NCBI RefSeq assembly: GCF_016717175.1
Contig: NZ_JADKFZ010000004.1
Strand: one strand, 5' to 3'
Source: Nannocystis sp.
Lineage (GTDB): Bacteria > Myxococcota_A > Polyangia > Nannocystales > Nannocystaceae
DNA length: 64,000 bases
The notes under the pieces are model-generated. The model searched no databases. It saw only the letters and a program-made list of their open reading frames with translations, and was not told the origin of the DNA. Of the stretch, positions 10,658 to 64,000 are shown piece after piece. Positions within the stretch are counted from its first letter, which is position 1, and every line of letters begins with the position of its first letter. Position numbers and translations under genes: made by a program.

Positions 10658-10664
10658 GCAACCC

Positions 10665-13600
10665 ATGTCATTCCCGTCCGCACCTGTCCTTCGGGCCATG
10701 TTGTCCTTCGCCGCGATCGCGGCCCCGATCTCGCTGCCGGCGTGCAAGCACAAGGCCGAGACCACGCAGGCGCCGTTCACCGCCGACGCCGCCCGCCAGC
10801 GCGCCGCGGAGCTCGAGCGTCAGCTCGTCAAGCAGCCGCAGGACGACGTCGCCGCGCTCGAGCTGGCCAACCTGCAGTGGTTGCACCTGCGGGCCACCGC
10901 GAAGGCGCTCCCCACCTTCGATCGCCTGGCCGCGCGGGGCAACCCCTACGCCCAGGTCGCGCGCATGATCATCGCCGACGCGCGCCTCGACCTCGTCACC
11001 GTGCGCAGCATGGCCCACGCGCTGATCAAGGGCGCCGCCGCGGCGCCGGGCCTCGCCCCTGCCGATGTCGCCGAGCGGGCCGCGCTGGCCGAGCTCGGCG
11101 CCCGCTACATCGGCGAGAACCACGGCGAGCTGCCCGACGACGACCTCGACTTCACGCGCTTCTTCGCGGAGGTGGAGCGCCTGCCGCTCCCGGTCGCCGT
11201 CACCCAGCCGCTGCTGAGCCAGCGCGCAAGCATCGCTCGCCGCCTCGATCAGCCCTACCTGGCCTACTACGAGGCTCAGGGCTGCGTGCGCGCCTGGCAG
11301 GTCGGCAAGGTCGAGGGCCACCTCGAGGCCTTCGAGCTGCGCCGCGCCGCGGCCGACCCCGCCGCGTTCGAGCTCGACCCGCAGGCCGTGCTCACGCCGC
11401 TGTCCTGCGTCGTCCGCACCTGGAACCCGACCCCGCGCGCCGGCATGCGGCGCATGCGAAGCTACCTCGACGTCCCTGGCGAGCAGCTCACCCTCAACAT
11501 CAGCAGTCAGGAGGCGGTCCGCGTCTACCTCGACGGCGCGCCGATCCACCGCAGCGACCGCAGCGACCGCTGGCCCCGCGGCGACAACACCCTCGAGCTC
11601 AAACTACAGCCTGGCATCCACCGCCTCGACGTCCACACCGCCGTGCCGCGCGAGAAGGTCTGGGTCCTGGTCCGCGCCACCGACCACCGCGGTCAGGCCG
11701 TGCCGGCCAGCGTCGAGGCGAAGGGCCCGCTGGCCCCGGCCTTCACGGGTCAGCCCGTGCGCCCGCGTTCGCCGTTCTTCCCATATGCACAGGGCCCGAT
11801 CGCCGGCCCGAGTTACGCGCCGCTGCGCATGCTGCTGGCCGCCTCCGACGCGATGGCCGACGCCAACAGCGACGACGCCGAGGGCTTCATCAAGGCGCTG
11901 CGCCACGCGGGCCCGAACTTCGCCGAGGGCGAGCTGCTGGTCGCGGCCTTCGAGACCGGCGACCCCACGCGTGACCGCAGCACCTCGACGGCGCGCCAGC
12001 GGGCGGCGATCGAGCGGGCCCTGGCGATCGACCCGGGCCTCGCCCGCGCGAGGATCCGCCTGCTCGAGATGGGCCTCGAGCGCGGCGAGACCAGCGAGGT
12101 CCTCGACGCCGTCACCGCGCTCGGCGACAAGGCCCTGCGCAACGTCCCGGGCGAGCTGCTGCGCTACCAGGCCTACCTCGCCCGCGGCAACGAGTTCCAG
12201 TCCGACGCGGCCCTGGCCCGCGCCGCCGCGATCCACCCGGAGCACTGCGCGGTGCTCAAGGCCCAGCGCGTGGTGGCCCAGCGCCGCGGCGACGTCGCGG
12301 CCGAGGACGCGCTCTCCGCGAAGGTCGAGACCTGCCCCGGCACCACCGGTACGCGCGCCCGCCTGGCCGCGCGCCGCGGTCGCCGCGACGAGGCCCGCGC
12401 GCTCTACAAGAAGCTGCTCGAGCGCACCCCCGACGACGTCGACGTGATGGCCGAGCTCGCCGAGCTGGCGATCAGCGAGGACAAGCTCGACGAGGCCCTC
12501 GGCTACCGGCGCAAGATCCTCGGCCTGAACCCCTACGCGACCAGCATGCACGTCGCCATCGCCGACCTCCAGGCGCGCATGGGCGACCCCGCGGCCGCGC
12601 GCGCCAGCGTCGGCGAGGCGCTGGTCCGGGTCCCGCAGAGCATGGCGATGTGGCAGGTCGCGCAGAACATCGGCATCCCGGACGACCTCGAGGCGCTGCG
12701 CGTCGACGGCCTGCCGATCGTCGCGGCCTACCGCGCCGGCAAGCACGACCACGCCGGCGTCGGCGAGGTGCTGGTGCTCGACCGCAGCGTCACCCGCGTG
12801 TACCCCGACGGCAGCCAGCGCCACATCATCCACACGATCACCGAGCTGCGCTCCAAGGAGGCGATCGACCGCTACGGGGAGATCGAGCCGCGCGAGGGGA
12901 CCCGCACGCTCACGCTGCACAGCATCAAGGCCGACGGCCGCGTGTTCGAGCCGGAGTCGATCCCCGAGAAGGACGGCCTCAGCCTGCGCGGCCTGCAGAT
13001 CGGCGACTTCGTCGAGTACGAATTCATGTTCGAGCGCGAGGAGCTCGGCCTGCTCCCGGGCTACGTCGACCTCTCGACCTTCCGCTTCCAGTCGCCCGAG
13101 ACCCCGTTCCACATCTCGGAGATGATCGTCGCCTACCCGAGCGACATGCCGCTCAAGGCCGAGCTCCGGGCCGGCGCGCCGCAGGCCGTGGTCACCCGTC
13201 TCGCTGCGGTCGCTGGCCTCGCTGCGGGCGCTGGCCAGGGCGAGCTCACCGTGCAGCACTGGCGCGTCGACCGTTCGCCGCGCCTCGGCGTCGAGCCGCA
13301 GATGCGCAACAGCCTGTTCGAGGTCCCGAACGTGCGCGTGTACAGCGACGTCGACACCGCCGCGTGGCTGTCGGCGCTGGGCCTGCGCATCTACACCGGC
13401 CAGCGCAGCAACCTCGAGCTGCGCCAGCTGACCCGCAAGCTGATCGCCGGCAAGACCTCGCCGCGCGCCCGCCTGGAGGCGCTGCACCGCTGGGTCGTCG
13501 AGAACGTCGAGGAGGTCGGCGAGCTCACCGTGCCGGCCACGCTCACGCTCTCGGCGCGCAAGGGCAGCGGCATGATCCTGCTCAAGACCATGCTGCGCGA

Positions 13601-14516
13601 GGCCGGCCTGCGCGCGGAGCTGTGGATCGCCCGCGACAACTTCGGCGCCGACATCAAGCCCGGCGGCAACCCGCTGTTCGAGTCCTACGATTCGCCCTAC
13701 CTGGCCGTTTGGACAGGTGAGGGCGAGACCCCGACGATGGTCATCACCGGCTCCAAGGTGCTGCCGCTCGGCTACCTCGTGCCCGGCCTCTCGGGCGCGG
13801 CCGGCTTTCGCATCCCGCTCAGTGAGAGCGACAAGGCGCCCGGCGCCGTGCGCTTCCCGGTCCGGCCCGCCGCGCTCGCGGACCGCCGCAGCTACCGCGT
13901 CCGCCTCGAGCTCGGCCGCGACGGCAGCGGCCGCGTCGAGGGCAGCATCGAGCTGCAGGGCATGGAGGCCGCGGCCTGGCGCGACGTGCTGCGAAACCTC
14001 GACCGCGACCGCATCAACGACGGCTTCGAGCGGGCCGAGCTGTCGGTGCTGTTCCCCGGCGCCACGGTCGAGCTCGCGGACCTGCAGATCGAGCAGGAGA
14101 AGCAGCTGGACGCCCCGCTGCGCCTGATCTTCCAGGGCGGCATCCGCGGCGCCGTGGTGGCCCAGGGCGGCGAGCTGCTGATGCGCGCCGCGACCGTGCC
14201 GCTCAACGTCGGCCTCGGCTACACGGCGCTGCCCGAGCGCAAGACCGGCTACGCGATCCCCTACGCGCCGTTGCTCGATGCCGAGGTGACGATCCAGATC
14301 GCCGGGGCCAAGTTCACCGGCACGCCCAGCGCCGAGACGATCGACACGCCGCAGGGCAGCTACCACCGCAGCGTCGAGGTCGGCGCGGAGGGCCTGACCG
14401 TGCGCACGCGTGCGACTCTCGGCACCGGCGTGTTCGGCCCCGAGGTCTACCCCGCGCTCGCCAGCCTGACCCGCCGGGTCAAGGCCGCCGAGGACCAGGT
14501 CATCCGCGCCCGCTGA
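10665..14516 (+). CDS. Paralog of the upstream TPR/DUF3857/transglutaminase-like protein; the transglutaminase-like core lacks the catalytic Cys
   Basis: Same overall architecture (1283 aa, TPR-rich middle, C-terminal DUF3857/TGase-like region), starting 8 bp after the previous gene. The core motif reads LSARKGSGMILLKTMLREAGLRAELWIARDNFG, where the catalytic Cys is replaced. Signal or lipobox: LPAC. Confidence 0.85.
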   Translation: MSFPSAPVLRAMLSFAAIAAPISLPACKHKAETTQAPFTADAARQRAAELERQLVKQPQDDVAALELANLQWLHLRATAKALPTFDRLAARGNPYAQVARMIIADARLDLVTVRSMAHALIKGAAAAPGLAPADVAERAALAELGARYIGENHGELPDDDLDFTRFFAEVERLPLPVAVTQPLLSQRASIARRLDQPYLAYYEAQGCVRAWQVGKVEGHLEAFELRRAAADPAAFELDPQAVLTPLSCVVRTWNPTPRAGMRRMRSYLDVPGEQLTLNISSQEAVRVYLDGAPIHRSDRSDRWPRGDNTLELKLQPGIHRLDVHTAVPREKVWVLVRATDHRGQAVPASVEAKGPLAPAFTGQPVRPRSPFFPYAQGPIAGPSYAPLRMLLAASDAMADANSDDAEGFIKALRHAGPNFAEGELLVAAFETGDPTRDRSTSTARQRAAIERALAIDPGLARARIRLLEMGLERGETSEVLDAVTALGDKALRNVPGELLRYQAYLARGNEFQSDAALARAAAIHPEHCAVLKAQRVVAQRRGDVAAEDALSAKVETCPGTTGTRARLAARRGRRDEARALYKKLLERTPDDVDVMAELAELAISEDKLDEALGYRRKILGLNPYATSMHVAIADLQARMGDPAAARASVGEALVRVPQSMAMWQVAQNIGIPDDLEALRVDGLPIVAAYRAGKHDHAGVGEVLVLDRSVTRVYPDGSQRHIIHTITELRSKEAIDRYGEIEPREGTRTLTLHSIKADGRVFEPESIPEKDGLSLRGLQIGDFVEYEFMFEREELGLLPGYVDLSTFRFQSPETPFHISEMIVAYPSDMPLKAELRAGAPQAVVTRLAAVAGLAAGAGQGELTVQHWRVDRSPRLGVEPQMRNSLFEVPNVRVYSDVDTAAWLSALGLRIYTGQRSNLELRQLTRKLIAGKTSPRARLEALHRWVVENVEEVGELTVPATLTLSARKGSGMILLKTMLREAGLRAELWIARDNFGADIKPGGNPLFESYDSPYLAVWTGEGETPTMVITGSKVLPLGYLVPGLSGAAGFRIPLSESDKAPGAVRFPVRPAALADRRSYRVRLELGRDGSGRVEGSIELQGMEAAAWRDVLRNLDRDRINDGFERAELSVLFPGATVELADLQIEQEKQLDAPLRLIFQGGIRGAVVAQGGELLMRAATVPLNVGLGYTALPERKTGYAIPYAPLLDAEVTIQIAGAKFTGTPSAETIDTPQGSYHRSVEVGAEGLTVRTRATLGTGVFGPEVYPALASLTRRVKAAEDQVIRAR

Positions 14517-25883: not shown

Positions 25884-27863
25884 TCACAGGTCCCTGCAGG
25901 GCGGCTCGCGGCCGAGGCTCACGGCCTGGAGGTTCAGCTCGGCCGCGGTGGCGGGCGAAAGCGCGGCGCAGCAGGCGTACTCGCTGTTGTCGTTGATCAG
26001 CGAGATCAGGAGATCCTCGGGCAAGCCGAAGCAGCACGCCGGCGTGGTGGCGCCGCCGTCGGAGGTCGCGCTGCATCGGGGGAGCGCGACACAGGTACCA
26101 TCGTCTGGCTCGTAGCACGAGATGCGCACGCCGGGGGTGCCATCGGTGTAGTCGAGCACGACCTCGGAGTCGGAGAACAGCGCGGTGCCGATCAGACCGT
26201 CGGGCTGGAGGGCCTCGGGGTTGGTGTCGCGCCGCATCGCCGTGACCATCGGGTGATCGGCGGGGATGATGACGGTGGTGATCCAGCGCTCGGGGTTCGG
26301 CCCGGGGCTGCCGCTCGAGTTGTCGATCACGAAGGCCTCGCCGAGCACGGCGGCCGTATCGAGGGCCGCGTCGGCGCAGCTGTTGCCGCTGCCGAGGCGC
26401 GGGCTGTTGCCCGCGGCGGCGCTGTCACACTGGGCCTTGAGCGCCTTCTGGCGCCGCTCGAGCCGCTGGCACGCGGATGGGCCGCTCGAGCTGGCGAGGC
26501 CCGGCACGAGGCCGACGCTGCGGACGCGCACCTGCAGGAGCGGCTGCTCCTTGCTGCCAGCGGGGGGCCAGCCGGGCAGCTCGAGCGCGCCGATCGTGCC
26601 GTCGATGCAGGCGGGTGCGCCGAGGTGGCTGCTGCCGATGTCGCCGCCGTCGCCCGCGCAGGGCGGGAGCTTGAGCTCGTTGAGCAGGCGACGGGCGCTG
26701 TCCTCGAAGAGCACGAGGCCGGCGATGCCGGTGGCGACGACGAGGCTGGCCTCGCGGCCGCGGTCGAGGTCGGTGGTGTCGAGCGGGGCCGGGGTGACGA
26801 CGCAGCCGCGGTCTTCCTCGGCGCGCGTACCCGACGCGCCGGTGGCGGAGTGATAGCTGCCCGCGGCGCTCGCGGGTCCAGCGGCGAGGCGACAGCGGCC
26901 GCGATCCGGGACCCACTCGACGGTCGCGGGCGGCGGGGCGACGCAGGCGTCGAGGACCATGCGGCTCGGTCGCAATGCGCTGGCGACTCGCTCGCGATCG
27001 AAGGTGCTGAGGTAGTCGCAGCTCTGGCCGCCGGCGAGGCACACGTCGGTGATGTCCTTGCCGAGCAGGAGTCCGGGGAACTGCAGCGGGATCGCGGCGC
27101 GACCCTGGTCGGCGAGCACGGCCTCGGAGCCGGGAAACTCGCGGTAGAAGGTGACCTCGAAGCGAGTGCCGTCTGGCTCGCGGTGGTGGGCGAAGCGGAC
27201 CGCGAATTCGCGGAGCAGGTTGCCGCCGATGACGCCGCCGACGTAGGCCGGTGCGCCCGCGGTGCCAGTGCGCCAGCTGAATGGTTGGGCGAGCGTCGAC
27301 GGGTCGCGCGGCAGGCGGACGACCGGGGTGTTGCTGAAGCGGAAGCGGCTGAGCGAGTCGCCGAGGACGGTCGCCTCGGCCTGCGGATCGAGGATCTGCG
27401 CCGCTGAGCGCAGCTCGAAGCAGGTGCGCTCGGGGACGGCGACGGTGGTGTCGTCGGCCAGCATGGTGATCGCGGTGGCGCTGTCGATCAGCACCGGCAT
27501 GCATGCACCCGGGTCGCAGGTGTCGGGCGGGCCGAGGCAGACCTCGCTGCAGCCGCCCTGGGTGCCGGGGCAGGGCTCCGGGAGGTAGGCGAGGCGCGGC
27601 AGGGGCGAGGCGTCGCCGGAGCCGAGAGCGACCGGGCGTCCGAACTCACCCTCGGCCTCGACCGAGTCGAAGTTGCAGGCCAGCGTGAGGGCCGTCGTGA
27701 GGCCGATCGTGAGGCCATTCGTGAGGCCATTCGTGAGGGCCAGCGCGAGCGGTGCGCAGTGGAGCCCGGAAATTGCCGCGAGACGCGGGCGAGGCGCCTG
27801 TGGGCCTCGCGTCGCGTCTCGTGGTCTCTCTGCGCTGGTTGCCACCCTGCCGGGTTCTAGCAC
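25884..27863 (-). CDS. Hypothetical secreted Cys-rich (lipo)protein; start codon uncertain
   Basis: A 659-aa ORF with a hydrophobic N-terminus ending in the lipobox-like LTLAC and many Cys. The N-terminus has a 12-bp tandem repeat (TNGLTNGLTIGLT). No confident domain. The ORF-track start (non-ATG) overlaps a strong hairpin, so the true start may lie downstream. Confidence 0.55.
   Translation of the reverse strand: MLEPGRVATSAERPRDATRGPQAPRPRLAAISGLHCAPLALALTNGLTNGLTIGLTTALTLACNFDSVEAEGEFGRPVALGSGDASPLPRLAYLPEPCPGTQGGCSEVCLGPPDTCDPGACMPVLIDSATAITMLADDTTVAVPERTCFELRSAAQILDPQAEATVLGDSLSRFRFSNTPVVRLPRDPSTLAQPFSWRTGTAGAPAYVGGVIGGNLLREFAVRFAHHREPDGTRFEVTFYREFPGSEAVLADQGRAAIPLQFPGLLLGKDITDVCLAGGQSCDYLSTFDRERVASALRPSRMVLDACVAPPPATVEWVPDRGRCRLAAGPASAAGSYHSATGASGTRAEEDRGCVVTPAPLDTTDLDRGREASLVVATGIAGLVLFEDSARRLLNELKLPPCAGDGGDIGSSHLGAPACIDGTIGALELPGWPPAGSKEQPLLQVRVRSVGLVPGLASSSGPSACQRLERRQKALKAQCDSAAAGNSPRLGSGNSCADAALDTAAVLGEAFVIDNSSGSPGPNPERWITTVIIPADHPMVTAMRRDTNPEALQPDGLIGTALFSDSEVVLDYTDGTPGVRISCYEPDDGTCVALPRCSATSDGGATTPACCFGLPEDLLISLINDNSEYACCAALSPATAAELNLQAVSLGREPPCRDL
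27777..27821 (-). terminator. Strong GC-rich inverted repeat (17-19-bp arms, 8-nt loop) ~56 nt downstream of the MlaC-like gene stop; possible intrinsic terminator without a U-tract
   Basis: cgcgagacgcgggcgaggc-gcctgtgg-gcctcgcgtcgcgtctcg. The arms are near-perfect reverse complements, with one bulge. Confidence 0.35.
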
Positions 27864-27876
27864 AGCTGGCAGCCGG

Positions 27877-28500
27877 CTACTTGGCGGCCGCGTTGGAGGC
27901 CAGCTCGGTCAGCTTGGCCTCGAGGCGGGCGATCAGCTCGTTGATGCCCTTGTCCTTGAGGATCTTGTTGAACTCGAACTTGTAGTTCTTCGCCAGGCTG
28001 ATGCCGTCGGTGATGATGTCCTCGGTGAGCCAGACGCCGTTGACTTGGTGCATCACGTAGACGACTTCGACGACCTCGGGCTTGCCGTCGCGGCTGAGCG
28101 AGACGTTGGTGATGACGTGGGTGCCGCGGGGCTTCGTCTCCTCGCCGACGTAGGCCAATTCGTACTTCTTGTCGGTCCGGATGCGCTTGAGGTAGTTCTC
28201 GCGGATGAGGCGGGTCAGCAGCGCCTCGAACTCGGCGCAGCGCGGCTCGCACTTGGCGGCGTAGCGGGCGGGGCCGCCGAGCGAGGTCTCGGCGAGCGCC
28301 TTGTAGTCGAGCAGCGCGTCGACTTCCTTCTGCAGCGTGGCGACATCGGCACGCTTCTTCACCAGCTCGACGACCTTCCCGTGGCGGGCCTTGAAGGTGT
28401 CCATCGCGCCCTCGGCGGCGGCGGCGGGGCGGGCCAGGCCCAGCAGGCACACAGAGGAGAGGGCGAGCCCGGTGATGAAGTTTCGTGCGGAATTCAGCAT
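27877..28500 (-). CDS. MlaC/Ttg2D-family (toluene-tolerance, phospholipid-binding) periplasmic protein
   Basis: A signal peptide (LALSSVCLLGLARPAAA|AE) is followed by a Tol-Ttg2-like fold (KKYELAYVGEET...VVEVVYVMHQVNGVWLTEDIITDGISLAKNYKFEFNKIL). Confidence 0.8.
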   Translation of the reverse strand: MLNSARNFITGLALSSVCLLGLARPAAAAEGAMDTFKARHGKVVELVKKRADVATLQKEVDALLDYKALAETSLGGPARYAAKCEPRCAEFEALLTRLIRENYLKRIRTDKKYELAYVGEETKPRGTHVITNVSLSRDGKPEVVEVVYVMHQVNGVWLTEDIITDGISLAKNYKFEFNKILKDKGINELIARLEAKLTELASNAAAK

Positions 28501-35055: not shown

Positions 35056-38401
<3,346 letters not shown>

Positions 38402-38405
<4 letters not shown>

Positions 38406-39322
38406 GGTTGCACCTCGACGAGCAGGGGCTCGTAGGTCGCGAAGGCGGCGAGCAGGGCGCTCGGGTCGGCGGGCGGGAGGACCAGCAAGGTGCCGCCGCC
38501 GCCGGCGCCGGTGAGCTTGGCCCCGAGGGCGCCCGCCGCGAGGGCGCTGGCTTGCAGGGCGTCGAGGGCGGGGGAGGAGACGTCGATGGCGCCGAGGAGG
38601 TGGTGGGCGATCGTCATGAGCTCGCCCAGGGCGGTGAGGTCCTGGTGGGCGAGGGCGCGGATGCTGGCCTCGGCGGCGGCCCCGAGGGCGGAGAGGGTCG
38701 GGGTGATCACGCTGCGCTGGCGCTCGAGGCGGGCGCGGACCTTGGCGACCTGGATCGCGGTGGAGCGGGGGATGTTGCTCGGGATGAGCAGGAGCGGGAG
38801 CGGGCCGGCGAGCGGGACGGGCTCGGCCCCGGCGCCGCGGACGAAGCGGAGCACGCCGCCCTGGGCGGCGACGCGGCTGTCGAGGCCGGAGGGTTCGCCG
38901 TGGAACACGCGCTCGCCGGCGAGGGAGGCGTCGACGAGCTCGTCGAGGTCGGCGTGTTCGCCGAGGACGAGGCGGGCGAGGGCGACGGTCAGGGCGGCGG
39001 AGCTGCCGAGGCCGGCGCGGGCGGGCAGGCAGGTGGTGCCGGTGATCGCCCAGCCGGTGACGGGGCCGTCGCAGTGGGTGAGGACCTCGAGGCAGGCGCG
39101 GGCGACCGGGTGCTCGCTGTCGGCGCGCAGCTCGAGCTCGAGTTGCCACTGCGGGATCGAGAGGGAGATCGGGAGCTTCGCGTGCTCGCGGGGGACGGCC
39201 TGCAAGCACACGCCCTGTGGGAGGCCGGCGGCGACGGCGGGGTGGCCGTAGACGACGGAGTGTTCGCCCAGCAAGATGACCTTGCCGCAGGCCTCGGCGC
39301 GGGGGTGAAGCGGGATCGGCAT
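38402..39322 (-). CDS. mvk: Mevalonate kinase (GHMP family)
   Basis: ACGKVILLGEHSVVYG is the N-terminal MK motif. ARAGLGSSAALTVALARLVL is the GHMP ATP-binding motif. The C-terminus reads KLTGAGGGGTLLVL. Confidence 0.8.
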
Positions 39323-49191: not shown

Positions 49192-50952
49192 TCAATCGGG
49201 GCGGACGACGATCGGGGGCTCGACCAGACGCGGCCGGGTGCGCGGGTCGGCGAGGTCGCGCTCGCCGGGGACGAAGCGCGGCTGATCGCGCGGGGCATCG
49301 TGGATCTCGCGCCAGCGTCGGGGCACGCGGTCGAGGCCGATCGGGTAGATGGTGAGGCCGCCGTCGCGGCCGACGGCGATGCGCAGGAACAGCTTGTAGT
49401 CGCGGATGCCGAGGCCGCTGTAGGCCTCGGTGGTGTGGCGGCCGAAGCCGTTGAGCGAGACGAGGAGGTAGAGGCCCATGATCTGGGCGCCGACGAGCCA
49501 GCCGCCGACGAACAGGGCGATCAGGGTGAGGCCGAGGTGCGGCAGGCCGCCGAAGCTCCAGCCGGCGGCGATCGCCACGCGGCTCATGAGCCAGCCGATC
49601 GCCACGGCGGCGCCGAGGTGGGCGAGCGCGTGGGTGAGGCCGCCCGCGAAGCGGTACCAGGCGCGGTGGGTGTCGGTGAAGATGAAGAAGCCGACGATGG
49701 CGACGAGGATCGTGCTGAAGGCGGAGGGCGAGCTGAGGGCGGCGGCGATGAATTCCTCGGCGGTGGAGCCGAGGCCGCCGACCTGGAAGTCGTGGCGCGC
49801 GCCGAGCAGGTTCCAGCCGACCAGGAGGTAGAGGAGGGCGGTGAGGAGGCCGAAGCTCGGGCTGTGGTAGACGAACAGGAGGTCGCGCCAGGTGAGGCGG
49901 CGCGAGGTGGCGAGGTCGGGGTAGCTGCAGCGCAGGGCGTGGCCGGTGACCAGCGGGGTCTGCTTGAAGCTGTGGGTCGGGTGGAGGAAGGCGCCGCCGC
50001 TGCCGGCGGTGATCTTCTGGCTGCGATCGTCGGGGCTCGCGTGGCGGCGGTAGTGGTGGTAGTCGCCGGAGAGGTTGAGGCGGACGCGGCCCTTGAAGAT
50101 CGTCTCCTCGAGGAAGACGAGGTTGCTGTCGCGGCGCATGCGGGCGCGCTCGTCGGGGTCGGCCTCGTGCTCGTAGACCCAGTGCGGCTCGGCGGTGCAG
50201 AGGATGACGCGGGCGTCGGGGCCCATCTGCGCGGCGATGCCGGTGAAGTAGGCGACCTGGGTGGCGTCGATGTCGGCGCCGAGCTGGGTGTCGGTGCCGA
50301 TGATCCACCAGTCGTGCGGGAGGCGGGCGGCGAAGTAGCTGCGGCGCTGGCCCAGGCGCCAGCCGCAGAACCACGGCTTGTCGGTGAACAGGCGGCTCCA
50401 GGCGGCGAGGTTGTCGTACCAGTCGTGGTTGCCCGGGATGGCAAAGAGGGTCGGGTGCTCGGTCTCGGTCCAGCCCATCGCGGCGTGGTAGGGCATGACG
50501 AGGCGTTGCTCGTAGGCGGCGCGGCTGGGGGTCGGGTAGACCTCGTCGCCGCCGAGCACGAGGATGTCGCCGCGGCGGGTGAGGTGGGTGGCGCCGTCGG
50601 GGGCGTCGACGCGGAGCTCGGGGCGCGTGGCGGTGTACGCGATCGCGTAGGTCGAGTCCCAGCCGTCGCCGGTGTCGGCGATGTAGTCGAGCACGATCTC
50701 CTCGCGGGCGACGACCTCGCCGGTGACGAGGGTGCGGGTCGTGAAGTCGAAGCGGGCGTAGGCCTCGCTGGTGCGCGGGTCGATCTGACGCCGGTCGAAG
50801 TCGGCGCCGAGGATGGTCGACAGCCACACGCGGCGGCCGGTCTGCAGCAGCTGCAAGGGGCCGTACCAGCGGACCATGCGGGCCGGCGCGTACGGGAACT
50901 GCGGGGTGCCCGGCATCGCCGACGATGGTGGCACGCGCGGGCGCGGCGTCAC
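49192..50952 (-). CDS. Calcineurin-like metallophosphoesterase with a C-terminal polytopic membrane domain
   Basis: Metallophosphoesterase motifs ILVLGGDEVYP ... FAIPGNHDWYD ... GDYHHYRR ... GSGGAFLHPTH are present. Several C-terminal TM helices follow (LLTALLYLLVGWNLL; ILVAIVGFFIF; LIALFVGGWLVG). Confidence 0.75.
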   Translation of the reverse strand: MTPRPRVPPSSAMPGTPQFPYAPARMVRWYGPLQLLQTGRRVWLSTILGADFDRRQIDPRTSEAYARFDFTTRTLVTGEVVAREEIVLDYIADTGDGWDSTYAIAYTATRPELRVDAPDGATHLTRRGDILVLGGDEVYPTPSRAAYEQRLVMPYHAAMGWTETEHPTLFAIPGNHDWYDNLAAWSRLFTDKPWFCGWRLGQRRSYFAARLPHDWWIIGTDTQLGADIDATQVAYFTGIAAQMGPDARVILCTAEPHWVYEHEADPDERARMRRDSNLVFLEETIFKGRVRLNLSGDYHHYRRHASPDDRSQKITAGSGGAFLHPTHSFKQTPLVTGHALRCSYPDLATSRRLTWRDLLFVYHSPSFGLLTALLYLLVGWNLLGARHDFQVGGLGSTAEEFIAAALSSPSAFSTILVAIVGFFIFTDTHRAWYRFAGGLTHALAHLGAAVAIGWLMSRVAIAAGWSFGGLPHLGLTLIALFVGGWLVGAQIMGLYLLVSLNGFGRHTTEAYSGLGIRDYKLFLRIAVGRDGGLTIYPIGLDRVPRRWREIHDAPRDQPRFVPGERDLADPRTRPRLVEPPIVVRPD

Positions 50953-51029
50953 AGCCTGGTCACGGATCGGTGTCGCGCAGGCCGCGCTGCGCGTTGCGGG
51001 CGGGCGGGCTTTGGGCGAGCCTGACAGGC

Positions 51030-51452
51030 ATGCACGTCCGCGAGCCCGTCATCCGCGAGGTCATCACCGAGGTCATCCGCACCGCCGACGCGCCGCAGGC
51101 GATCGGGCCGTACAGCCAGGCGATCGCGGTCCGCGGCGGGCGCACGGTGTACACCTCGGGCCAGATCCCGCTCGACCCGAAGACGATGCAGATCGTGGGT
51201 GAGGGGGACATCGTGGCCCAGACGGAGCGGGTGATGGAGAACCTGCGCGGGCTGCTGGCGGCCGCGGGCGTGGGCTTCGAGCACGTGGTGCGCGCGGGGA
51301 TCTTCCTCGCCGACATGCAGCACTTCGGCCAGGTCAATGAGATCTACGGGCGAGCCTTCACCAAGGATCCGCCGGCTCGATCGACGGTGCAGGTGGCGTA
51401 CCTGCCGCGCGGGGTGCTGGTCGAGATCGACATGATCGCGGTGGGGCCCTAA
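51030..51452 (+). CDS. ridA: RidA/YjgF/UK114-family reactive-intermediate deaminase
   Basis: APQAIGPYSQAIAVRGGRTVYTSGQIPLDP ... PARSTVQVAYLPRGVLVEIDMIAV is the classic RidA pattern (...PAR.TV.V..LP....VEI). Confidence 0.85.
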   Translation: MHVREPVIREVITEVIRTADAPQAIGPYSQAIAVRGGRTVYTSGQIPLDPKTMQIVGEGDIVAQTERVMENLRGLLAAAGVGFEHVVRAGIFLADMQHFGQVNEIYGRAFTKDPPARSTVQVAYLPRGVLVEIDMIAVGP

Positions 51453-58060: not shown

Positions 58061-58615
58061 TCAGGGGTTCTTCTGGATCTCTTCCTTCTCGACGGAGACC
58101 TCGACGCGGCGGCCCTCGGGGCCGTCCTGGACCTTGACCTGGACCGCACCGTCGACGCCGTCGGCGGCGAGCTGATCGCGGATCTGCTGCTCGGCCTCGG
58201 CGGGGCTGAGGTCGGCCTCGACGGCGATCACGGGCATGGGCGGGGTCTCGCCGGCGGGGATCGTGGTGGCGGTGATGTCCGCGCCGGCGAGCGCGGGGAA
58301 CTGGGCCTTGAGCTTGCTGGCGAGGTCGCCGGCGGCGGGGAGCGTGGCGCCCCACAGCTCGATCTCGAGGACCGGGGCGGCGCCGTCCTCGTGCTTGACG
58401 CGGACCATGGCGGCGCCGGTCTGGGTGGCCGGGCCCTCGAGGTGCTGCGCGATCGCGTGGACGGTGGTCGGGGGGAGCTCGCCGGCGTCGCGGATCTGGA
58501 CGCGCAGGCCGCCGGCGCTGGCGAGCTCGGCGACGCGGGCCTGGGGGTCGTCGCCGCGGTCACAGGCGAGGGCGAGCAGGGTGCAGAGCAGGGGCAGCAG
58601 GAGTGGCTTGAACAT
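58061..58615 (-). CDS. Hypothetical lipoprotein
   Basis: Lipobox LLALAC|D. Ala-rich, with no recognisable domain. Confidence 0.55.
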   Translation of the reverse strand: MFKPLLLPLLCTLLALACDRGDDPQARVAELASAGGLRVQIRDAGELPPTTVHAIAQHLEGPATQTGAAMVRVKHEDGAAPVLEIELWGATLPAAGDLASKLKAQFPALAGADITATTIPAGETPPMPVIAVEADLSPAEAEQQIRDQLAADGVDGAVQVKVQDGPEGRRVEVSVEKEEIQKNP

Positions 58616-58710
58616 GTGGTGTGGGGTCCTCGGGCTGCACTACGGGGCGGGCGGGGAAAGGTGACAGGGGCGGGTCGCGGGCGCGGGTCGGGGGTCGCGG
58701 GCGCTCGGGG

Positions 58711-58860
58711 TGGACATGGCCCTTGGGTCAGGTGATGTGCCGCTCGCGGGCGCGCGGGATAGACATGTCCCTTGGGTCAGGTGGTGCGGCGCTCGCGGGC
58801 GCGCGGGATAGACATGTCCCTTGGGTCAGGTGGTGTGGCGCTCGCGGGCGCGCGGGTGTG
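58711..58860. repeat. Three tandem ~50-bp repeats, each carrying a variant of the palindromic element (GACATGTCCCTTGGGTCAGGTG), directly upstream of the CHAT-SIR2 gene
   Basis: [tg]gacatg[gt]cccttgggtcaggtg[ag]tg[ct]g[gc]cgctcgcgggcgcgcggga occurs three times with about four substitutions. Confidence 0.85.
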
Positions 58861-58895: not shown

Positions 58896-60959
58896 GTGGT
58901 GATGGCGAGCGCCGAGTGTGCCGATCTCGAGGTGAGCCTGACGCGGCGGGACGCGGGCCTGTACGCGATCGAGATGCGCTTCACGCAGCCGGGCAGCGAG
59001 GCGGACGTGCGCCTGGAGACCGGGGCCGGGGAGGCGGCGATGGCCCACATCGACCTGGCGGCGCTGCGCGAGCAGCTGCTGGACGCGGACGCGTATGGGG
59101 CGACGCTCGGGGCGGCGCTGTTCGGCTCCGCGGCGGCGGCGGCGATGTACGCCCGGGCGGAGGCGACGGCGCAGGAGCTCGGGACGCCGCTGCGGCTGCG
59201 GCTGGCGATCGGGGCCGACGCGCCGGAGCTGCACGCGCTGCGCTGGGAGACGCTGCGATCGCCGGCGGGGGCGCGGCTGGTGGCGAGCGAGCAGGTGCAG
59301 TTCTCGCGCTACCTGAGCAGCGCGGACTGGCAGGCGGTGCGGCTGCGGCCGCAGACCGAGCTGCGGGTGCTGGTGGCGATCGCCAACCCGGCGGGGCTCG
59401 GCGAGTACGGGCTCGCGGCGGTCGATGTCGAGAGGGAGTGGAACGGGGTGCGCGAGGCCCTGGGGGCGCTGCAGATCGCGGCGCTCAAGGAGCCGGGCGA
59501 GGCGACGCTCGACCGGATCACGGAGCAGCTGCGCGGTGGCATCGACGTGCTGTACCTGGTGTGCCACGGGACCTGGCAGCGGGGGGCGTCGTGGTTGTGG
59601 CTCGAGGACGCGGAGGGGAAGATCGATCGCGTCGGCGGCGAGGCGCTGGTGGAGCGCATCGCGGGGCTTGGCACCCGGCCGCGGCTGGTGGTGCTGGCCT
59701 CGTGCGAGGGCGCGGGCGCGGGTCAGACGCACGGGGCCGAGGGCGAGGCGATGGCGGCGTTGGGGCCGAGCCTGGCGCGCGCGGGGGTGCCGGCGGTGCT
59801 GGCGATGCAGGGGACGATCAGCGCGCAGACGGTGAGCGTGCTGATGCCGAAGTTCTTCGCCGAGCTGCGCCGCGAGGGCCAGGTCGACCGGGCGCTGGCG
59901 CGGGCGCGGGCGGCGGTGCAGGACCGCCGCGACTGGTGGATGCCGGCGCTGTTCATGCGCCTGCGCAGCGGGAGGATCAGCTACACGCCGGGCTTCGGCG
60001 GCGATCGCTCGAGCTTCGAGAAGTGGCCGGCGCTGCTGCAGAGCATCAAGGCCGGGCGCTGCACGCCGATCGTCGGGCCGGGGCTGGCGGAGCCGCTGCT
60101 CGGGGGCTCGCGCGAGCTGGCCCGCCGCTGGGCCGAGACCTACCACTACCCGCTGGCCGGTGACCGCGAGGATCTGCCGCAGGTGGCCCAGTACCTGGTG
60201 GTCCATCAGGATCCGAACTTCCCGCGCGACGAGCTCGAGAGCAGCCAGCGGACGGTGCTGCGCGAGCGCTTCCCGCTGGCTGTCCCGAAGGACATGTGGG
60301 AGGCGCCGCTGGACGAGCTGCTGGTGAAGGTGGCGGCGTGGCGGCAGGCCCAGGGCGAGCAGGACTCGCACGCGACGCTGGCCGCGCTGCCGCTGCCGAT
60401 CTTCGTCACGACGGCGGTCGATCGCCTGCTCGAGCACAACCTGGAGGCGCGGGGCAAGGCGCCGAACTCGGCGGTGTGCGCGTGGCAGGGCGAGGTCGAG
60501 GCGGAGGCGGGCGCCGGCGCGGAGCTGCGGCCGGACCCGCAGCGGCCGCTCGTGTACCACCTGTTTGGCCGGCTCGACGCGCGCGACGCGATGGTGCTGA
60601 CGGAGGACGACTACTTCGACTTCTTGATCGGCGTGACCGGCAACCGCGACCTGATCCCGGTGACCGTGCGGCGGGCGCTGGCCGACACGGCGCTGCTGTT
60701 CCTCGGCTTCCACATGGAGGACTGGAACTTCCGCGTGCTGTTTCGCAGCATCATGAGCCAGCAGGGCGGCGGTCGGCGCAAGCGCTACGCCCACATCGCG
60801 GCGCAGATCGATCCGGAGCAGGGGCGGGCCGTGGACATCGAGCGGGCGCGGCGGTACCTCGAGGAGTACTTCGACGAGGCGGACATCACGATCTACTGGG
60901 GCAGCGCGGAGGACTTCCTCGCGGAGCTGCGAGGTCGCCTCGAGGGCAAGGCGACGTGA
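58896..60959 (+). CDS. CHAT-domain (caspase-like protease) protein fused to a C-terminal SIR2-like (SIR2_2/PF13289-type) domain
   Basis: The CHAT His/Cys dyad is present: IDVLYLVCHGTWQ and RLVVLASCEGAG. The SIR2_2-like motifs are CTPIVGPGLAEPLL (GAGxS-like), PIFVTTAVDRLLE (TTNYD-like, with Asn replaced by Ala), PLVYHLFGRLDARDAMVLTEDDYFDF (KLHGS...lteeDY-like) and ALLFLGFHMEDWNFRVLF (LFIGYSL.D-like). Confidence 0.8.
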   Translation: MVMASAECADLEVSLTRRDAGLYAIEMRFTQPGSEADVRLETGAGEAAMAHIDLAALREQLLDADAYGATLGAALFGSAAAAAMYARAEATAQELGTPLRLRLAIGADAPELHALRWETLRSPAGARLVASEQVQFSRYLSSADWQAVRLRPQTELRVLVAIANPAGLGEYGLAAVDVEREWNGVREALGALQIAALKEPGEATLDRITEQLRGGIDVLYLVCHGTWQRGASWLWLEDAEGKIDRVGGEALVERIAGLGTRPRLVVLASCEGAGAGQTHGAEGEAMAALGPSLARAGVPAVLAMQGTISAQTVSVLMPKFFAELRREGQVDRALARARAAVQDRRDWWMPALFMRLRSGRISYTPGFGGDRSSFEKWPALLQSIKAGRCTPIVGPGLAEPLLGGSRELARRWAETYHYPLAGDREDLPQVAQYLVVHQDPNFPRDELESSQRTVLRERFPLAVPKDMWEAPLDELLVKVAAWRQAQGEQDSHATLAALPLPIFVTTAVDRLLEHNLEARGKAPNSAVCAWQGEVEAEAGAGAELRPDPQRPLVYHLFGRLDARDAMVLTEDDYFDFLIGVTGNRDLIPVTVRRALADTALLFLGFHMEDWNFRVLFRSIMSQQGGGRRKRYAHIAAQIDPEQGRAVDIERARRYLEEYFDEADITIYWGSAEDFLAELRGRLEGKAT

Positions 60960-63900
60960 GCCCGGCGCCGGCCAACCCCTACGTCGGGCCGCGGGCCTTC
61001 ACCACCGGCGAGGCGCTGTACGGGCGCTCGGGCGAGCGGGCGGCGCTGCTGGACCTGCTGGTGGCGGAGCGGGTGGTGCTGCTGCACGCGCCGTCGGGGG
61101 CGGGCAAGAGCTCGCTGCTGTATGCCGGGCTGATCCCGGACCTGCGCGCGGAGGGCTTCGTGGTCCGGCCGCCGATCCGGGTCGGCACCGAGCCGCCAGC
61201 GAGCGCGGCGGGGGTCAATCGCTTCAGCTTCAGCGCGGTGCTCAGCCTGGCCGAGGGCGAGACGCAGCCGCGACCGTTGGCCGACCTGGCGACGCTGTCC
61301 CTGGCGAGCTACCTCGGTCCGGCGCCGGCCGAGGCGGAGGTGCTGATCTTCGACCAGTTCGAGGAGGTGCTGACGATCGATCCGATCGATCGCGCGAGCA
61401 AGCACGCGTTCTTCGCCGACCTGGCGGCGGCGCTGCGATCGTCGCAGCGCTGGGCGGTCATAGCGATCCGCGAGGACCACCTGGCCGGGCTGGCGCCGTA
61501 CCAGCGGGCCCTGCCCACGCGGCTGAAGACGACCTTCCACCTCGATCTGCTGGGCGCCGATGCGGCGCTGGCGGCGGTGCAGCTGCCGGCGCGCGCGGCC
61601 GGGGTGGAGTTTAGCGACGCGGCGGCGCGCAAGCTGGTCGACGACCTGCGCCAGGTCCAGGTCCAGACGGCGGAGGGCGGGACGGCGCGGGTGCTCGGGC
61701 CGTACGTCGAGCCGGTGCAGCTGCAAGTGGCGTGTCGCGATCTGTGGGAGCGCAAGCCGGCGGAGGACCTGACGATCGACGAGCGCGACGTGCAGCAGAT
61801 CGGCGACGTCGACCAGGCGCTGACCCGCTACTATGACGCCCAGATCGCGGCGGTGGCGGGCGCGACGGGGCTGGCGGAGGTCGAGCTGCGGCGGTGGTTC
61901 GACCGGGCGCTGATCTCCGAGCAGGGGCTGCGCGGGCAGGTGCTGCAGGGGGCGACGCAGACGCAAGGGCTGGCCAACGCGGTGGTGCGGGCGCTGGTCG
62001 ACACGCACCTGGTCCGGGCCGAGCAGCGGCGCGGGATCGTGTGGTTCGAGCTGGCCCACGACCGGCTGATCGGGCCGGTGCGGGCGAGCAACGCGAAGTG
62101 GTCGACTGATCACCTGAGCGTGATCCAGCGCCAGGCCCAGCTGTGGGACAGCCACGGGCGGCCGGAGTCGCTGCTGCTGCCCGACCTGGCGGTGATCGAG
62201 CGCCAGCTGGCCGATCCGGGGATGGCGGCGCTCGAGCGGAGCTTCCTCGAGCAGAGCAAGCTGCTGCGCCAGCGCGAGGCGGAGTCGCTGCGCCTGCGTC
62301 GGATCGTTCGCTGGTTGACGGCCGCGGCGCTGCTCGGGCTGGTGGTCACGCTGGCGACGCTGGCGGTGGTGTACCAGCTGCGCAGCGACGAGGAGCAGCG
62401 GCGGCGCGAGGCGGCGGAGGCGGAGCGCGACGCGGCGGCGGCGGCGACGGTGGCGGCGCGGCAGCGGGGTCGCGAGGCGCTGTCGCGGCAGCTGGCGGCG
62501 ACGGTGCTGGTGATGCCGCCGGAGCTGGCGGAGCTGGCGGCGCTTTATGCGGTGGCGGCGAGCCAGATGGCCTCGGGCTGGGACATTCGCGGCTGCCTCG
62601 GCAACCTCGCGGCCCGGGCTCCGCAGCTGCGCGCGCTGCTGCCGGGGACCATGGCGCCGGTGATGCTGGCGCACGACCCCGGGCGCGGGGTGCTGGCGGG
62701 CTTGCAGGACGACGGGCGCCTGGTGCTGTGGGACCTCCGGACGCGGCGTGTGATCGCGTCGCCGAGGGCGGGGATCGGCCACGAGGCGGTGATCTTCGAC
62801 GCGAGTCGCCAGCAGTTCGTGACCGCGGACCGCGACGCGACGGTGACCTTCTACGCGCCGGCGAACGGAGGGGGGCGCAGCCTGGCGCTCGAGAAGGGGC
62901 CGTGGCGGCGGATCGCGGTGTCCGGGGACGGCGCGCGCCTGGCCACCGCGGACGCGTTCGGGCGGGTGTGGCTGGTGGACGCGCACACGGGCAGCAAGCT
63001 GACCGGGGTCGAGCTGCCGGAGCTCCACGACGGGCGGGTGATCGAGCAGATGGCCCTCGACGCGGACGGCGAGACGCTGGCGTTCGCGACGGCCGATGGG
63101 GACGTGAAGCTGTGGCGCTGGGGCACGGGCGGCGTGCTGCGGGCCGAGGTCCCGGCGGCGGAGCGCGAGGGCGGGTCGCCGTCGGAGCGTGAGGGCGGGT
63201 CGCCGGCGGGGCTGAGATTTGGCGCCGGAGGGGCGCTGGTGGGGCTGCTCGGGGACGGGCGGGTGCTGCGGTGGACGCTGTCGGCGAAGGGGGCTCCAGG
63301 CAAGCCGACGCAGCTGGCGGGGCTGGCCGAGGGGGCGGTGGCGCCGGACAGCGGGCAGCGGGCGAGGTTCCTGGCGCTGGGTCTGGCGGCCGACGGCGCG
63401 AGCGCGGCGGGGGTGCTGTGCCTCGACGCGTGCACGCGCGAGGTGCTGCTGCAATGGGACGCGGCGAGCGGGCGGGTCGACGGCGTGGCGATCGAGATGT
63501 CCGACCGCGACACGAAGGATCGGCGCTTCGATCTGCGGGTCACTTCGCAGGTGGCGATCGCGGCGGGTGTGCGGGTGGCGGCGCGGGTGTGGGACCTGGT
63601 GGGGTGGCGGCCGCTGGCCGGGTCACCGAAGGATGTTCGGGCGCTGGCGGTCAGCGGCGACGGTGAGCTGGTGGCCGCCGCCGGCTGTCCCGCGGACGCG
63701 GGTGCGTGTGGCGAGAGCGAGGTGACGGTGTGGCGCGCCCGGGAGCGCACGCGCGTGTACGCGGGGCTGCGCGGGCTGGGTGAGGTGGCGCAGGGGCTCA
63801 GCTTCTTCGCCGGCGACCGCCGTCTGGCGGTGCTCGGGCGCGACGGCGGGGTTGTCCTTTGGGACATGTCCTCGGGGCAAGCCACGCCGGGCCCGCGCCT

Positions 63901-64000
63901 GCCGAGCGTGGCCGACACTCTGGCGCTGCGGGCCCGCGGGGACGGGCTCCTGGCGGCGATCGGCGTCGGCAGCCGGGTGCACGTGTGGGACGTGCTCGGC
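60956..64000 (+). CDS. STAND-type P-loop NTPase with the NPYxGxxxF N-terminal motif and DQFEE Walker B, then a TM helix and C-terminal WD40-like beta-propeller repeats; 3' end beyond the window
   Basis: Translated by hand from the sequence, since the ORF track omits it because it has no in-window stop. Start is GTG 60956, overlapping the upstream TGA (GTGA). The opening reads MSPAPANPYVGPRAFTTGEALYGRSGERAALLDLLVAERVVLLHAPSGAGKSSLLYAGLIPDL; Walker B is EVLIFDQFEEVL; then ...GIVWFELAHDRLIGPVRASNAKW. The TM helix reads LTAAALLGLVVTLATLAVV, followed by a coiled-coil-like EEQRRREAAEAERD. WD-like repeats include RLVLWDLRT, VKLWRWGT, VVLWDMSSG and RVHVWDVLG. (64000-60956+1) is divisible by 3 and no in-frame stop was seen. 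Confidence 0.8.
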   Translation, partial: MSPAPANPYVGPRAFTTGEALYGRSGERAALLDLLVAERVVLLHAPSGAGKSSLLYAGLIPDLRAEGFVVRPPIRVGTEPPASAAGVNRFSFSAVLSLAEGETQPRPLADLATLSLASYLGPAPAEAEVLIFDQFEEVLTIDPIDRASKHAFFADLAAALRSSQRWAVIAIREDHLAGLAPYQRALPTRLKTTFHLDLLGADAALAAVQLPARAAGVEFSDAAARKLVDDLRQVQVQTAEGGTARVLGPYVEPVQLQVACRDLWERKPAEDLTIDERDVQQIGDVDQALTRYYDAQIAAVAGATGLAEVELRRWFDRALISEQGLRGQVLQGATQTQGLANAVVRALVDTHLVRAEQRRGIVWFELAHDRLIGPVRASNAKWSTDHLSVIQRQAQLWDSHGRPESLLLPDLAVIERQLADPGMAALERSFLEQSKLLRQREAESLRLRRIVRWLTAAALLGLVVTLATLAVVYQLRSDEEQRRREAAEAERDAAAAATVAARQRGREALSRQLAATVLVMPPELAELAALYAVAASQMASGWDIRGCLGNLAARAPQLRALLPGTMAPVMLAHDPGRGVLAGLQDDGRLVLWDLRTRRVIASPRAGIGHEAVIFDASRQQFVTADRDATVTFYAPANGGGRSLALEKGPWRRIAVSGDGARLATADAFGRVWLVDAHTGSKLTGVELPELHDGRVIEQMALDADGETLAFATADGDVKLWRWGTGGVLRAEVPAAEREGGSPSEREGGSPAGLRFGAGGALVGLLGDGRVLRWTLSAKGAPGKPTQLAGLAEGAVAPDSGQRARFLALGLAADGASAAGVLCLDACTREVLLQWDAASGRVDGVAIEMSDRDTKDRRFDLRVTSQVAIAAGVRVAARVWDLVGWRPLAGSPKDVRALAVSGDGELVAAAGCPADAGACGESEVTVWRARERTRVYAGLRGLGEVAQGLSFFAGDRRLAVLGRDGGVVLWDMSSGQATPGPRLPSVADTLALRARGDGLLAAIGVGSRVHVWDVLG

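Follow-up and report, generated by a model that had tools for sequence, protein, structure and literature searches.

Comparison with described conflict systems

Conflict modules of multicellular bacteria have been described by Aravind and colleagues, in whose work nSTAND1 is named, and the nSTAND1 conflict systems (Kaur et al. 2021, eLife, PMC8195603; PF20703) offer the first comparison for the gene pair reported here. The pair lies in a 64,000-nucleotide stretch of Nannocystis sp. DNA (contig NZ_JADKFZ010000004.1), the whole of which is called the window (GC 68-77%), where two open reading frames (ORFs) of the same direction fill positions 58896-64000. Gene 1 encodes a CHAT protease followed by a SIR2-like domain, and gene 2 encodes an nSTAND1 nucleoside triphosphatase (NTPase) followed by a transmembrane (TM) helix and a WD40-type sensor. 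We propose, with a probability of roughly 0.55, that the two genes form a membrane-spanning STAND receptor which activates a caspase-like protease via a catalytically dead SIR2 domain, in a system of the conflict or regulated-cell-death type. The described nSTAND1 systems possess the same NTPase family, with an NPYxG N-terminus and active Walker motifs, and, including the "antigen sensors" diversified by diversity-generating retroelements (PMC10907252), they likewise carry a variable C-terminal repeat or lectin-type sensor; peptidase and TIR effectors and an enrichment in multicellular bacteria are shared with the present module as well. However, their effector is either fused N-terminally or coupled via EAD/Death-like adaptor pairs, whereas the effector here is a separate upstream protein with a constant C-terminal SIR2 fold that appears dead, and a TM helix is placed between NTPase and sensor. 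No EAD or Death-like Pfam match was detected in either protein, which distinguishes the module from the EAD-coupled effector/NTPase pairs (Kaur et al. 2020), where both partners carry the same EAD, and the NTPase profile begins at residue 8 of the gene 2 product, leaving no space for an N-terminal adaptor.

The order of effector, SIR2 fold, STAND NTPase and sensor is also that of Avs5 (SIR2-STAND) and of SAMD9/SAMD9L (AlbA - variant SIR2 - STAND - TPR - OB), but those are single cytosolic polypeptides, whereas the chain of the present module is split between SIR2 fold and NTPase. Moreover, the SIR2 domain of Avs5 is an active nicotinamide adenine dinucleotide (NAD+) hydrolase (NADase), in contrast to the apparently dead SIR2 fold found here together with an nSTAND1 NTPase, a CHAT effector and a sensor beyond the TM helix. 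An Avs assignment was rejected, as gene 2 has no significant PADLOC match, the effector resides on a separate protein and the TM helix intervenes between NTPase and sensor. The Apaf-1 apoptosome and the bacterial Apaf-1-like STANDs (PMC13581612), the latter with WD40 sensors and N-terminal caspase-like domains, share a WD40 propeller sensor, a STAND NTPase and a caspase-fold output with the module, whose protease would be recruited via a non-catalytic adaptor, like CARD in Apaf-1/caspase-9. Unlike in Apaf-1, the NTPase is not of the AP-ATPase/NB-ARC type, the adaptor would be a SIR2 fold instead of a Death fold, and the predicted position of the propellers is extracytoplasmic, an arrangement nearer to death-receptor (extrinsic) logic.

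Compared with the SIR2 NADases ThsA, KomC and DSR, the module lacks the catalytic Asn and His, a SLOG or other known ligand-sensor domain, and a ThsB/TIR partner at this locus. Thoeris was rejected, since Pfam found no TIR, SLOG or Macro domain in either protein and no third gene is conserved. The module also differs from the SAVED-CHAT, Craspase (TPR-CHAT/Csx29) and type IV Thoeris proteases in that its activator would be a STAND receptor and not a cyclic-nucleotide sensor or CRISPR effector. The EACC1-caspase systems (Kaur et al. 2020, PMC7159879; PMC12642450) are likewise two-gene and membrane-associated, with an N-terminal caspase fold followed by variable C-terminal domains, and sometimes include nSTAND1, but the present module has no EACC1 gene and its membrane component is the NTPase receptor itself. 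This candidate was rejected too, because the sole upstream ORF (58064-58639, opposite strand) is divergent and has no Pfam match, and no upstream gene is conserved across loci.

Against PADLOC-DB v2.0.0, gene 1 gave only generic ThsA-SIR2 and SAVED_CHAT domain matches and no system-level match, and gene 2 gave no significant match, whether as the partial or the full-length protein. Literature searches on nSTAND1, on the combination of CHAT, SIR2, STAND and WD40, on inactive SIR2 adaptors and on transmembrane STAND proteins returned no description of the pair, in agreement with an earlier note on this DNA, made from the sequence alone, which had not recognised it as a named system. The domain families and their general grammar are already known; the obligate pairing of CHAT/dead-SIR2 with nSTAND1-TM and the family-wide loss of SIR2 catalytic residues with its implied adaptor role are not described in the searched literature, nor is the uniformly transmembrane, outward-facing architecture, apart from a single passing mention of "transmembrane STAND ATPases" (PMC12642450).

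The CHAT–SIR2-like protein

Gene 1 and its features lie at the following positions.

58902..60959, + strand: gene 1, CHAT protease then putative SIR2-fold pseudo-enzyme, 685 aa, predicted cytoplasmic
59178..59939, + strand: CHAT (caspase-fold) domain, residues 93-346, Pfam PF12770, E 3e-31
59565-59567 and 59703-59705, + strand: CHAT catalytic residues His222 and Cys268, in motifs LVCHG and LASCE
60015..60944, + strand: SIR2-fold domain without the catalytic residues, proposed NTPase adaptor, residues ~372-681
60414-60416, + strand: Ala505 at the SIR2 Asn position, by profile alignment to ThsA and KomC
60564-60566, + strand: Phe555 at the SIR2 His position, by profile alignment to ThsA and KomC

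The start of gene 1 is ATG 58902, as in the public annotation, with an alternative GTG at 58896, and the gene ends with TGA 60957-60959; its GC content at third codon positions (GC3) is 0.97. The product is identical to MBK9754460.1 / WP_293252843.1, labelled "CHAT domain-containing protein [Nannocystis sp.]", from a metagenome-assembled genome of a Nannocystis-like myxobacterium, and a 57%-identical paralogue (P0021) is likewise labelled Nannocystis sp. Its CHAT and SIR2_2 Pfam matches are both well over the curated cut-offs, and all four domain calls that the earlier note had made for the two proteins were upheld by Pfam. The CHAT region possesses both the profile match and a caspase/separase-like fold, and the His/Cys dyad described earlier is present and invariant in both sets of CHAT-SIR2 homologues counted below (120/120 and 82/82), so that the protease active site is, as far as its residues tell, intact. 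An NCBIfam search gave a weak, sub-threshold similarity to HetF.

The C-terminal domain has a SIR2 Rossmann-type fold and matches Pfam SIR2_2 (PF13289) at residues 502-658 with E 1.4e-21, and the SIR2_2-like domain predicted from the sequence is therefore present. The catalytic positions were mapped unambiguously by sequence/profile alignment to wild-type ThsA (6lhx) and KomC (9v0g), where "TTNYD ... KMHGD" of ThsA and "ttNyD ... kFHGt" of KomC align with "TTAVD ... HLFGR" of gene 1, placing Ala505 at Asn112 of ThsA and Phe555 at His152 of ThsA (His146 of KomC). Inactivated mutants have been deposited as ThsA N112A (8bto), KomC carrying Ala at both positions (9v12) and KomC H146N (9xvc). Residues at the two positions were counted in three overlapping homologue sets, 120 + 82 + 150 = 352 aligned rows.

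120 closest homologues: His position 555, F107, Y6, L5, C2; Asn position 505, N53, A23, T18, D15, S6, G3
82 genome-locus sequences (33-100% identity): position 555, F75, L3, Y3, one row gapped; position 505, N in 39
150 representatives of 50%-identity clusters plus the query: position 555, F137, Y9, L5; position 505, N in 87

His was found at position 555 in none of the three sets, and Asn occupies position 505 in just 44-58% of the homologues, leaving that position unconstrained. In addition, the GAGxS motif is degenerate in gene 1 (GPGLA) and its Ser is not conserved among the homologues. Residues of the domain that are invariant and specific to the family include W410, TEDDYF (567-572), W608/F610 and Y656/F657. 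NAD+ depletion by the gene 1 domain is not supported because the His position is never His, the Asn position is Ala here and variable elsewhere, and the GAGxS Ser is not kept; judged by these alignments, the domain is a pseudo-enzyme whose catalytic residues are gone family-wide. The earlier note had presented gene 1 as a combination of two classic effector domains with SIR2 as the NAD+ depleter, a description that fails at its second half.

The nSTAND1–TM–WD40 protein and its predicted topology

Gene 2 and its features follow directly; L001 is the matching locus from another assembly (GCA_964267895.1).

60956..60959, + strand: GTGA start/stop overlap of gene 1 and gene 2, the same start being called in L001
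60956..64000, + strand: gene 2, first 1015 of 1289 codons, GTG start, nSTAND1 NTPase - TM - stalk - WD40
60977..62215, + strand: nSTAND1 NTPase module, predicted cytoplasmic, residues 8 to ~420
61094-61114, + strand: Walker A SGAGKSS, residues 47-53 (Lys = K51)
61352-61366, + strand: Walker B DQFEE, residues 133-137
62315..62371, + strand: single TM helix LTAAALLGLVVTLATLAVV, residues 454-472, mean Kyte-Doolittle 2.43
62618..64000, + strand: start of the WD40 beta-propeller, predicted extracytoplasmic, continuing to residue ~1265 in L001

As had been noticed, the GTG of gene 2 at 60956 overlaps the TGA of gene 1. The 3' end, which runs off the window, was recovered from the L001 contig, 99.62% identical over 15,095 bp with no gaps, where the complete gene 2 product is 1289 aa long and differs from the window copy at 2/1015 positions. 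Because L001 carries this full gene, gene 2 is neither truncated nor interrupted; a convergent methyltransferase gene stands after it in L001. The nSTAND1 match (PF20703) covers residues 8-373 with E 4.9e-35 and 122.3 bits against a cut-off of 27.1, and the full-length L001 protein is likewise annotated PF20703. The gene 2 product has the AAA+/STAND fold, comprising nucleotide-binding, helical and winged-helix domains, with a repeat sensor after it. The STAND assignment and its NPYxG, DQFEE and ELAHDRLI signatures were thus corroborated: NPYVGPRAF, SGAGKSS, DQFEE and ELAHDRLI all occur in gene 2 and are conserved across 57-62 partner proteins, Walker A and Walker B being invariant in 57 partners, and by these motifs gene 2 encodes an active NTPase and not an iSTAND.

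The single TM helix and the WD40 region behind it were also found as predicted, and the AlphaFold2 model has one continuous helix (425-519) running through the TM segment. Exactly one strongly hydrophobic 19-mer occurs right after the NTPase in 51/56 long partners, and the same TM segment is present in 105/109 further homologues; the helix is a family constant. Lys plus Arg are more frequent in the 15 residues before the TM segment than in the 15 after it in 50/53 partners. Since this conforms to the positive-inside rule and the ATPase must be cytoplasmic, the C-terminal sensor domain is predicted to be extracytoplasmic, which confirms the TM helix behind the previously suggested membrane-anchored sensing and refines the sensing part to a sensor that would face outward.

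In the window part of gene 2 the WD40-type Pfam matches are weaker than the nSTAND1 match; the full-length region matches WD40 (PF00400) at 39.4 bits, and PDB matches of the propeller include those of PkwA and Apaf-1. The region after the TM helix is WD40 in 46/54 partner C-termini, and FHA, FGE-sulfatase, Trypsin_2, DUF1566 or PD40 takes its place in other members of this NTPase clade (46-62% identity), with CHAT-SIR2 still the upstream gene in 3/3 checked sensor variants (L085, L087 and L088). The sensor regions have 12-25% identity, against 34-57% for the NTPase. A second NTPase-sensor gene stands behind the first in L010, L018 and L050, which suggests that one effector protein may serve several receptors.

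Some further observations concern the sensor. Locus L088 (1-12061, JGI 3300057029) carries three successive CHAT-SIR2 + nSTAND1 pairs, one of its NTPases ending in Trypsin_2 with no WD40. Locus L085 (1321-7096, GCA_048887365.1) has CHAT-SIR2 + nSTAND1-TM-FHA, and a faint Peptidase_C25-like gene comes next; its contig bears the label "Candidatus Hodarchaeota archaeon" (Asgard archaea), which could reflect binning contamination or a real transfer. Many WD40-type partners end in a cap motif, AC..AGRNLT..EW..Y......YR.TCP (L001 15770-15850, gene 2 residues ~1240-1265), with two conserved Cys ~25 residues apart; a disulfide between them, if formed, would fit an extracytoplasmic location. The gene 2 propeller in the window also contains an in-frame 24-bp x 2.2 tandem duplication at 63156-63209 (EREGGSPS-EREGGSP).

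Conservation of the pair and the SIR2-like domain as its constant link

A search of a 5.8-billion-protein set returned >1220 homologues of gene 1, and the best 120 are all ~685 aa long with >=53% identity and both domains; in a scan with one genome per species, at least 561 genomes carry a gene 1 relative. Of 79 loci fetched, 76 from about eight phyla had usable downstream sequence, and in 68/76 of them the very next gene downstream, on the same strand, encodes an nSTAND1-type NTPase, the two genes being -21 to +241 bp apart. The NTPase gene is directly upstream in L014, further upstream on the same strand in L052 and L083, and was not found within the fetched DNA at 5 loci of the 76. Pairwise identities of the two proteins correlate with r = 0.81 (Mantel, 58 loci, p = 0.001), and because of this correlation and the adjacency, the pair is a genuine and very widespread two-gene module. 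Chance adjacency, which the earlier note had named as a possible undoing of its candidate, is thereby refuted, and what had appeared as a split CHAT+SIR2 / NTPase-TM-WD40 combination is a constant pair in which the sensor varies and, less often, the effector too. When six-frame segments from 81 loci were clustered all against all, no conserved third gene emerged, the clusters recurring across many loci being frame shadows of the two genes.

The fetched loci are mostly from Chloroflexota, with others from Acidobacteriota, Actinomycetota, Verrucomicrobiota, Proteobacteria, Gemmatimonadota and further groups. Several come from the same metagenome-assembled genome, the phylum distribution is patchy, and identity across phyla is ~55%. 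Cultured carriers include Serratia ureilytica CCUG 50595, Cupriavidus pinatubonensis LMG 23994, Cellulomonas septica, Modestobacter marinus and Oscillochloris sp. ZM17-4, which makes the module directly testable.

With the SIR2-like domain alone as the query, 4419 cluster representatives were retrieved, 1080 of them (50% identity clusters) at E<=1e-30, and nearly all are ~700-aa CHAT-SIR2 proteins. The exceptional architectures are TIR_2 - X - SIR2-like (P0277 and P0332), CHAT - metallophosphatase - SIR2-like (P0358, 1088 aa), a CHAT-SIR2 protein extended at its N-terminus (P0352) and stand-alone SIR2-like proteins of ~350 aa. The "X" region of P0332 is homologous to the gene 1 CHAT (35% identity over 702 aa, E 2e-100) and has lost both catalytic residues ("CHG" to "MDV", "ASCE" to "SPVL"), and at L090 an nSTAND1-WD40 gene overlaps the stop codon of this gene for TIR, degenerate CHAT and SIR2-like domain. 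The SIR2 domain co-varies with the NTPase slightly more (r = 0.72) than CHAT does (r = 0.65). As effectors are exchanged ahead of a SIR2 module that always stands beside nSTAND1, the dead SIR2 module is the constant element abutting the NTPase gene, and it probably serves as a connector or adaptor to the NTPase rather than as a NADase.

In a cryo-electron microscopy preprint on SAMD9L, its "variant Sir2-like domain" is described as a scaffold with a regulatory function, through which dimers form. Helical filaments have been deposited for many of the nearest structural relatives (ThsA, KomC, Avs5 and FAM118B) and for the SAVED-CHAT protease, and for this reason co-assembly would be a plausible route of protease activation. 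No Rosetta-stone fusion of SIR2 and NTPase was found among the 120 best NTPase homologues.

Three other architectures were recorded for these proteins. The insert of P0358 between CHAT and SIR2-like domain is a calcineurin-like metallophosphoesterase, which matches PDC-S60, a candidate in PADLOC, as well as an "Endonuclease" effector model. At L052 (1620-10079), nSTAND1-TM-WD40 is followed by a Peptidase_C25-like + TIR_2 fusion (898 aa) and then by CHAT-SIR2, the fusion being a second protein of "protease fold + NAD-processing fold" in that operon. Finally, L091 (4754-9351, P0271) combines SIR2-like, nSTAND1 and WD40 within a single ORF of 1116 aa, and the 420-aa ORF ahead of it has no Pfam match.

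Proposed mechanism and alternative explanations

In the mechanism we propose, gene 2 would encode a single-pass receptor with a cytoplasmic nSTAND1 ATPase, a TM helix with a helical stalk, and extracytoplasmic WD40 propellers. A ligand would bind the external propeller, the cytoplasmic NTPase modules would then oligomerise in an NTP-dependent manner, and the dead SIR2 domain would dock or co-assemble on the NTPase platform. The CHAT domains clustered in this way might be activated by proximity and cleave cellular targets, leading to growth arrest or death. The physical interaction of SIR2 domain and NTPase, the activating oligomerisation, the kind of ligand and the protease substrates are what we infer in this scheme, and the defence or immune role would be assigned by analogy. 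The conflict or regulated-cell-death reading is drawn from a set of features, namely the constant core, exchangeable and fast-evolving sensors, paralogue arrays, a patchy spread, and CHAT or TIR outputs. More tentatively, and with somewhat less than even odds, the family as a whole may comprise cross-phylum transmembrane STAND receptors that signal to a caspase-like protease (TIR in some) via a dead-sirtuin adaptor, with interchangeable external WD40, lectin-like and protease sensors.

The characterised STAND immune sensors in the literature (Avs, bNACHT and Apaf-1-like) detect ligands within the cell, and a STAND receptor with an external sensor, if true, would carry NLR-like signalling over to surveillance outside the cytoplasm, for instance of adsorbing or injecting phages, a damaged envelope, or cells nearby. 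It would also represent a prokaryotic analogue of caspase activation by death receptors (the "extrinsic" route). A dead SIR2 adaptor, if true, would caution against annotating SIR2_2 as a NAD+-depleting effector, would parallel, in bacteria, the scaffold-type SIR2 found in human SAMD9/SAMD9L, and would be the first SIR2 fold serving effector recruitment between separate proteins.

Several observations weigh against the proposal of a membrane receptor acting through a dead adaptor. His553, two residues before Phe555, is present in ~75-80% of members, and its side chain would face the same side of the strand, which might allow a shifted active site; with Y, Q, K, R, C, P or S in the remaining 20-25%, its candidacy as a relocated catalytic residue is weak. 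The sole candidate for a SIR2-NTPase fusion, P0271, may be a real fusion or an assembly frameshift artefact. An FHA domain after the TM helix, as in L085, would be unusual outside the cytoplasm, and some members may therefore depart from the C-out topology. Furthermore, the neighbourhoods in the window and in L001 consist of housekeeping genes and form no defence island, a full-length copy was not found in PLSDB plasmids, and no DNA match was found in E. coli genomes.

The alternative that survives best, although it is unlikely, keeps the same molecular logic and assigns it to an envelope, developmental or kin-recognition device, where an external cue would trigger specific regulated proteolysis and not an anti-phage response. 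HetF is a CHAT-family protease that acts in cyanobacterial differentiation. The weak HetF similarity, the housekeeping neighbourhood, the absence of full-length copies from PLSDB and the enrichment in Chloroflexota, Myxococcota, Actinomycetota and Acidobacteriota all point in this direction, as does a sensor predicted to face outward, whereas those Avs and NLR-like sensors that have been characterised respond to phage proteins in the cytoplasm. However, conflict systems typically show paralogue arrays, fast-evolving exchangeable sensors and swaps between CHAT and TIR, and nSTAND1 has been described solely in counter-invader contexts.

We regard as somewhat less probable still that the SIR2 fold acts as a ligand-binding regulator, which would bind NAD+, ADP-ribose or a related nucleotide and gate CHAT allosterically. 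This would account for the retention of the Rossmann-type GxG (G392 ~98%, G394 70-90%) and of the invariant TEDDYF and GF..DW.F motifs, and TIR domains do occur in the same family and operons (L052, P0277 and P0332), while nucleotide-activated caspase-like proteases are known from type IV Thoeris and SAVED-CHAT. But the module has two genes and a signal-producing enzyme is absent at most loci, the hallmark NAD-contacting positions are degenerate, and the strict adjacency to the NTPase and the co-variation with it would be left unexplained. The least probable alternative makes gene 1 a dual effector, like ThsA, DSR and Avs5, in which STAND activation would lead to both protein cleavage by CHAT and NAD+ depletion by SIR2, and although the PADLOC ThsA-SIR2 match (1.8e-11) and the fairly conserved His553 are in its favour, we consider it improbable in view of the residue counts and the GAGxS motif given above, of the changes at the same two positions that were used to inactivate ThsA and KomC (Ala, or H146N), and of the replacement of His553 in a fifth or more of the members against 100% conservation of the CHAT dyad.

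Genomic surroundings

One further feature lies just upstream of the module.

58689..58856, strand not assigned: three tandem 49-bp direct repeats, each with a palindromic core GACATGTC (3 matches, 0 expected by chance)

The repeats sit between a divergent 184-aa ORF and gene 1, are the only copies in the window, and are identical in L001. They are possibly an operator array, and it is uncertain that they belong to the module. A TACAAT follows them at ~58879, and no sigma-70-like promoter was found upstream of gene 1.

Elsewhere in the window, three large high-GC3 ORFs of 1376, 674 and 618 aa, at 10386-14513 (+ strand), 25887-27908 (- strand) and 49195-51048 (- strand), match no Pfam family at E<=1e-5. 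A stop-free frame of 1185 codons at 35059-38613 (- strand) carries GHMP-kinase and HMG-CoA reductase domains of the mevalonate pathway, and may represent either two adjacent genes in one frame or a real fusion.

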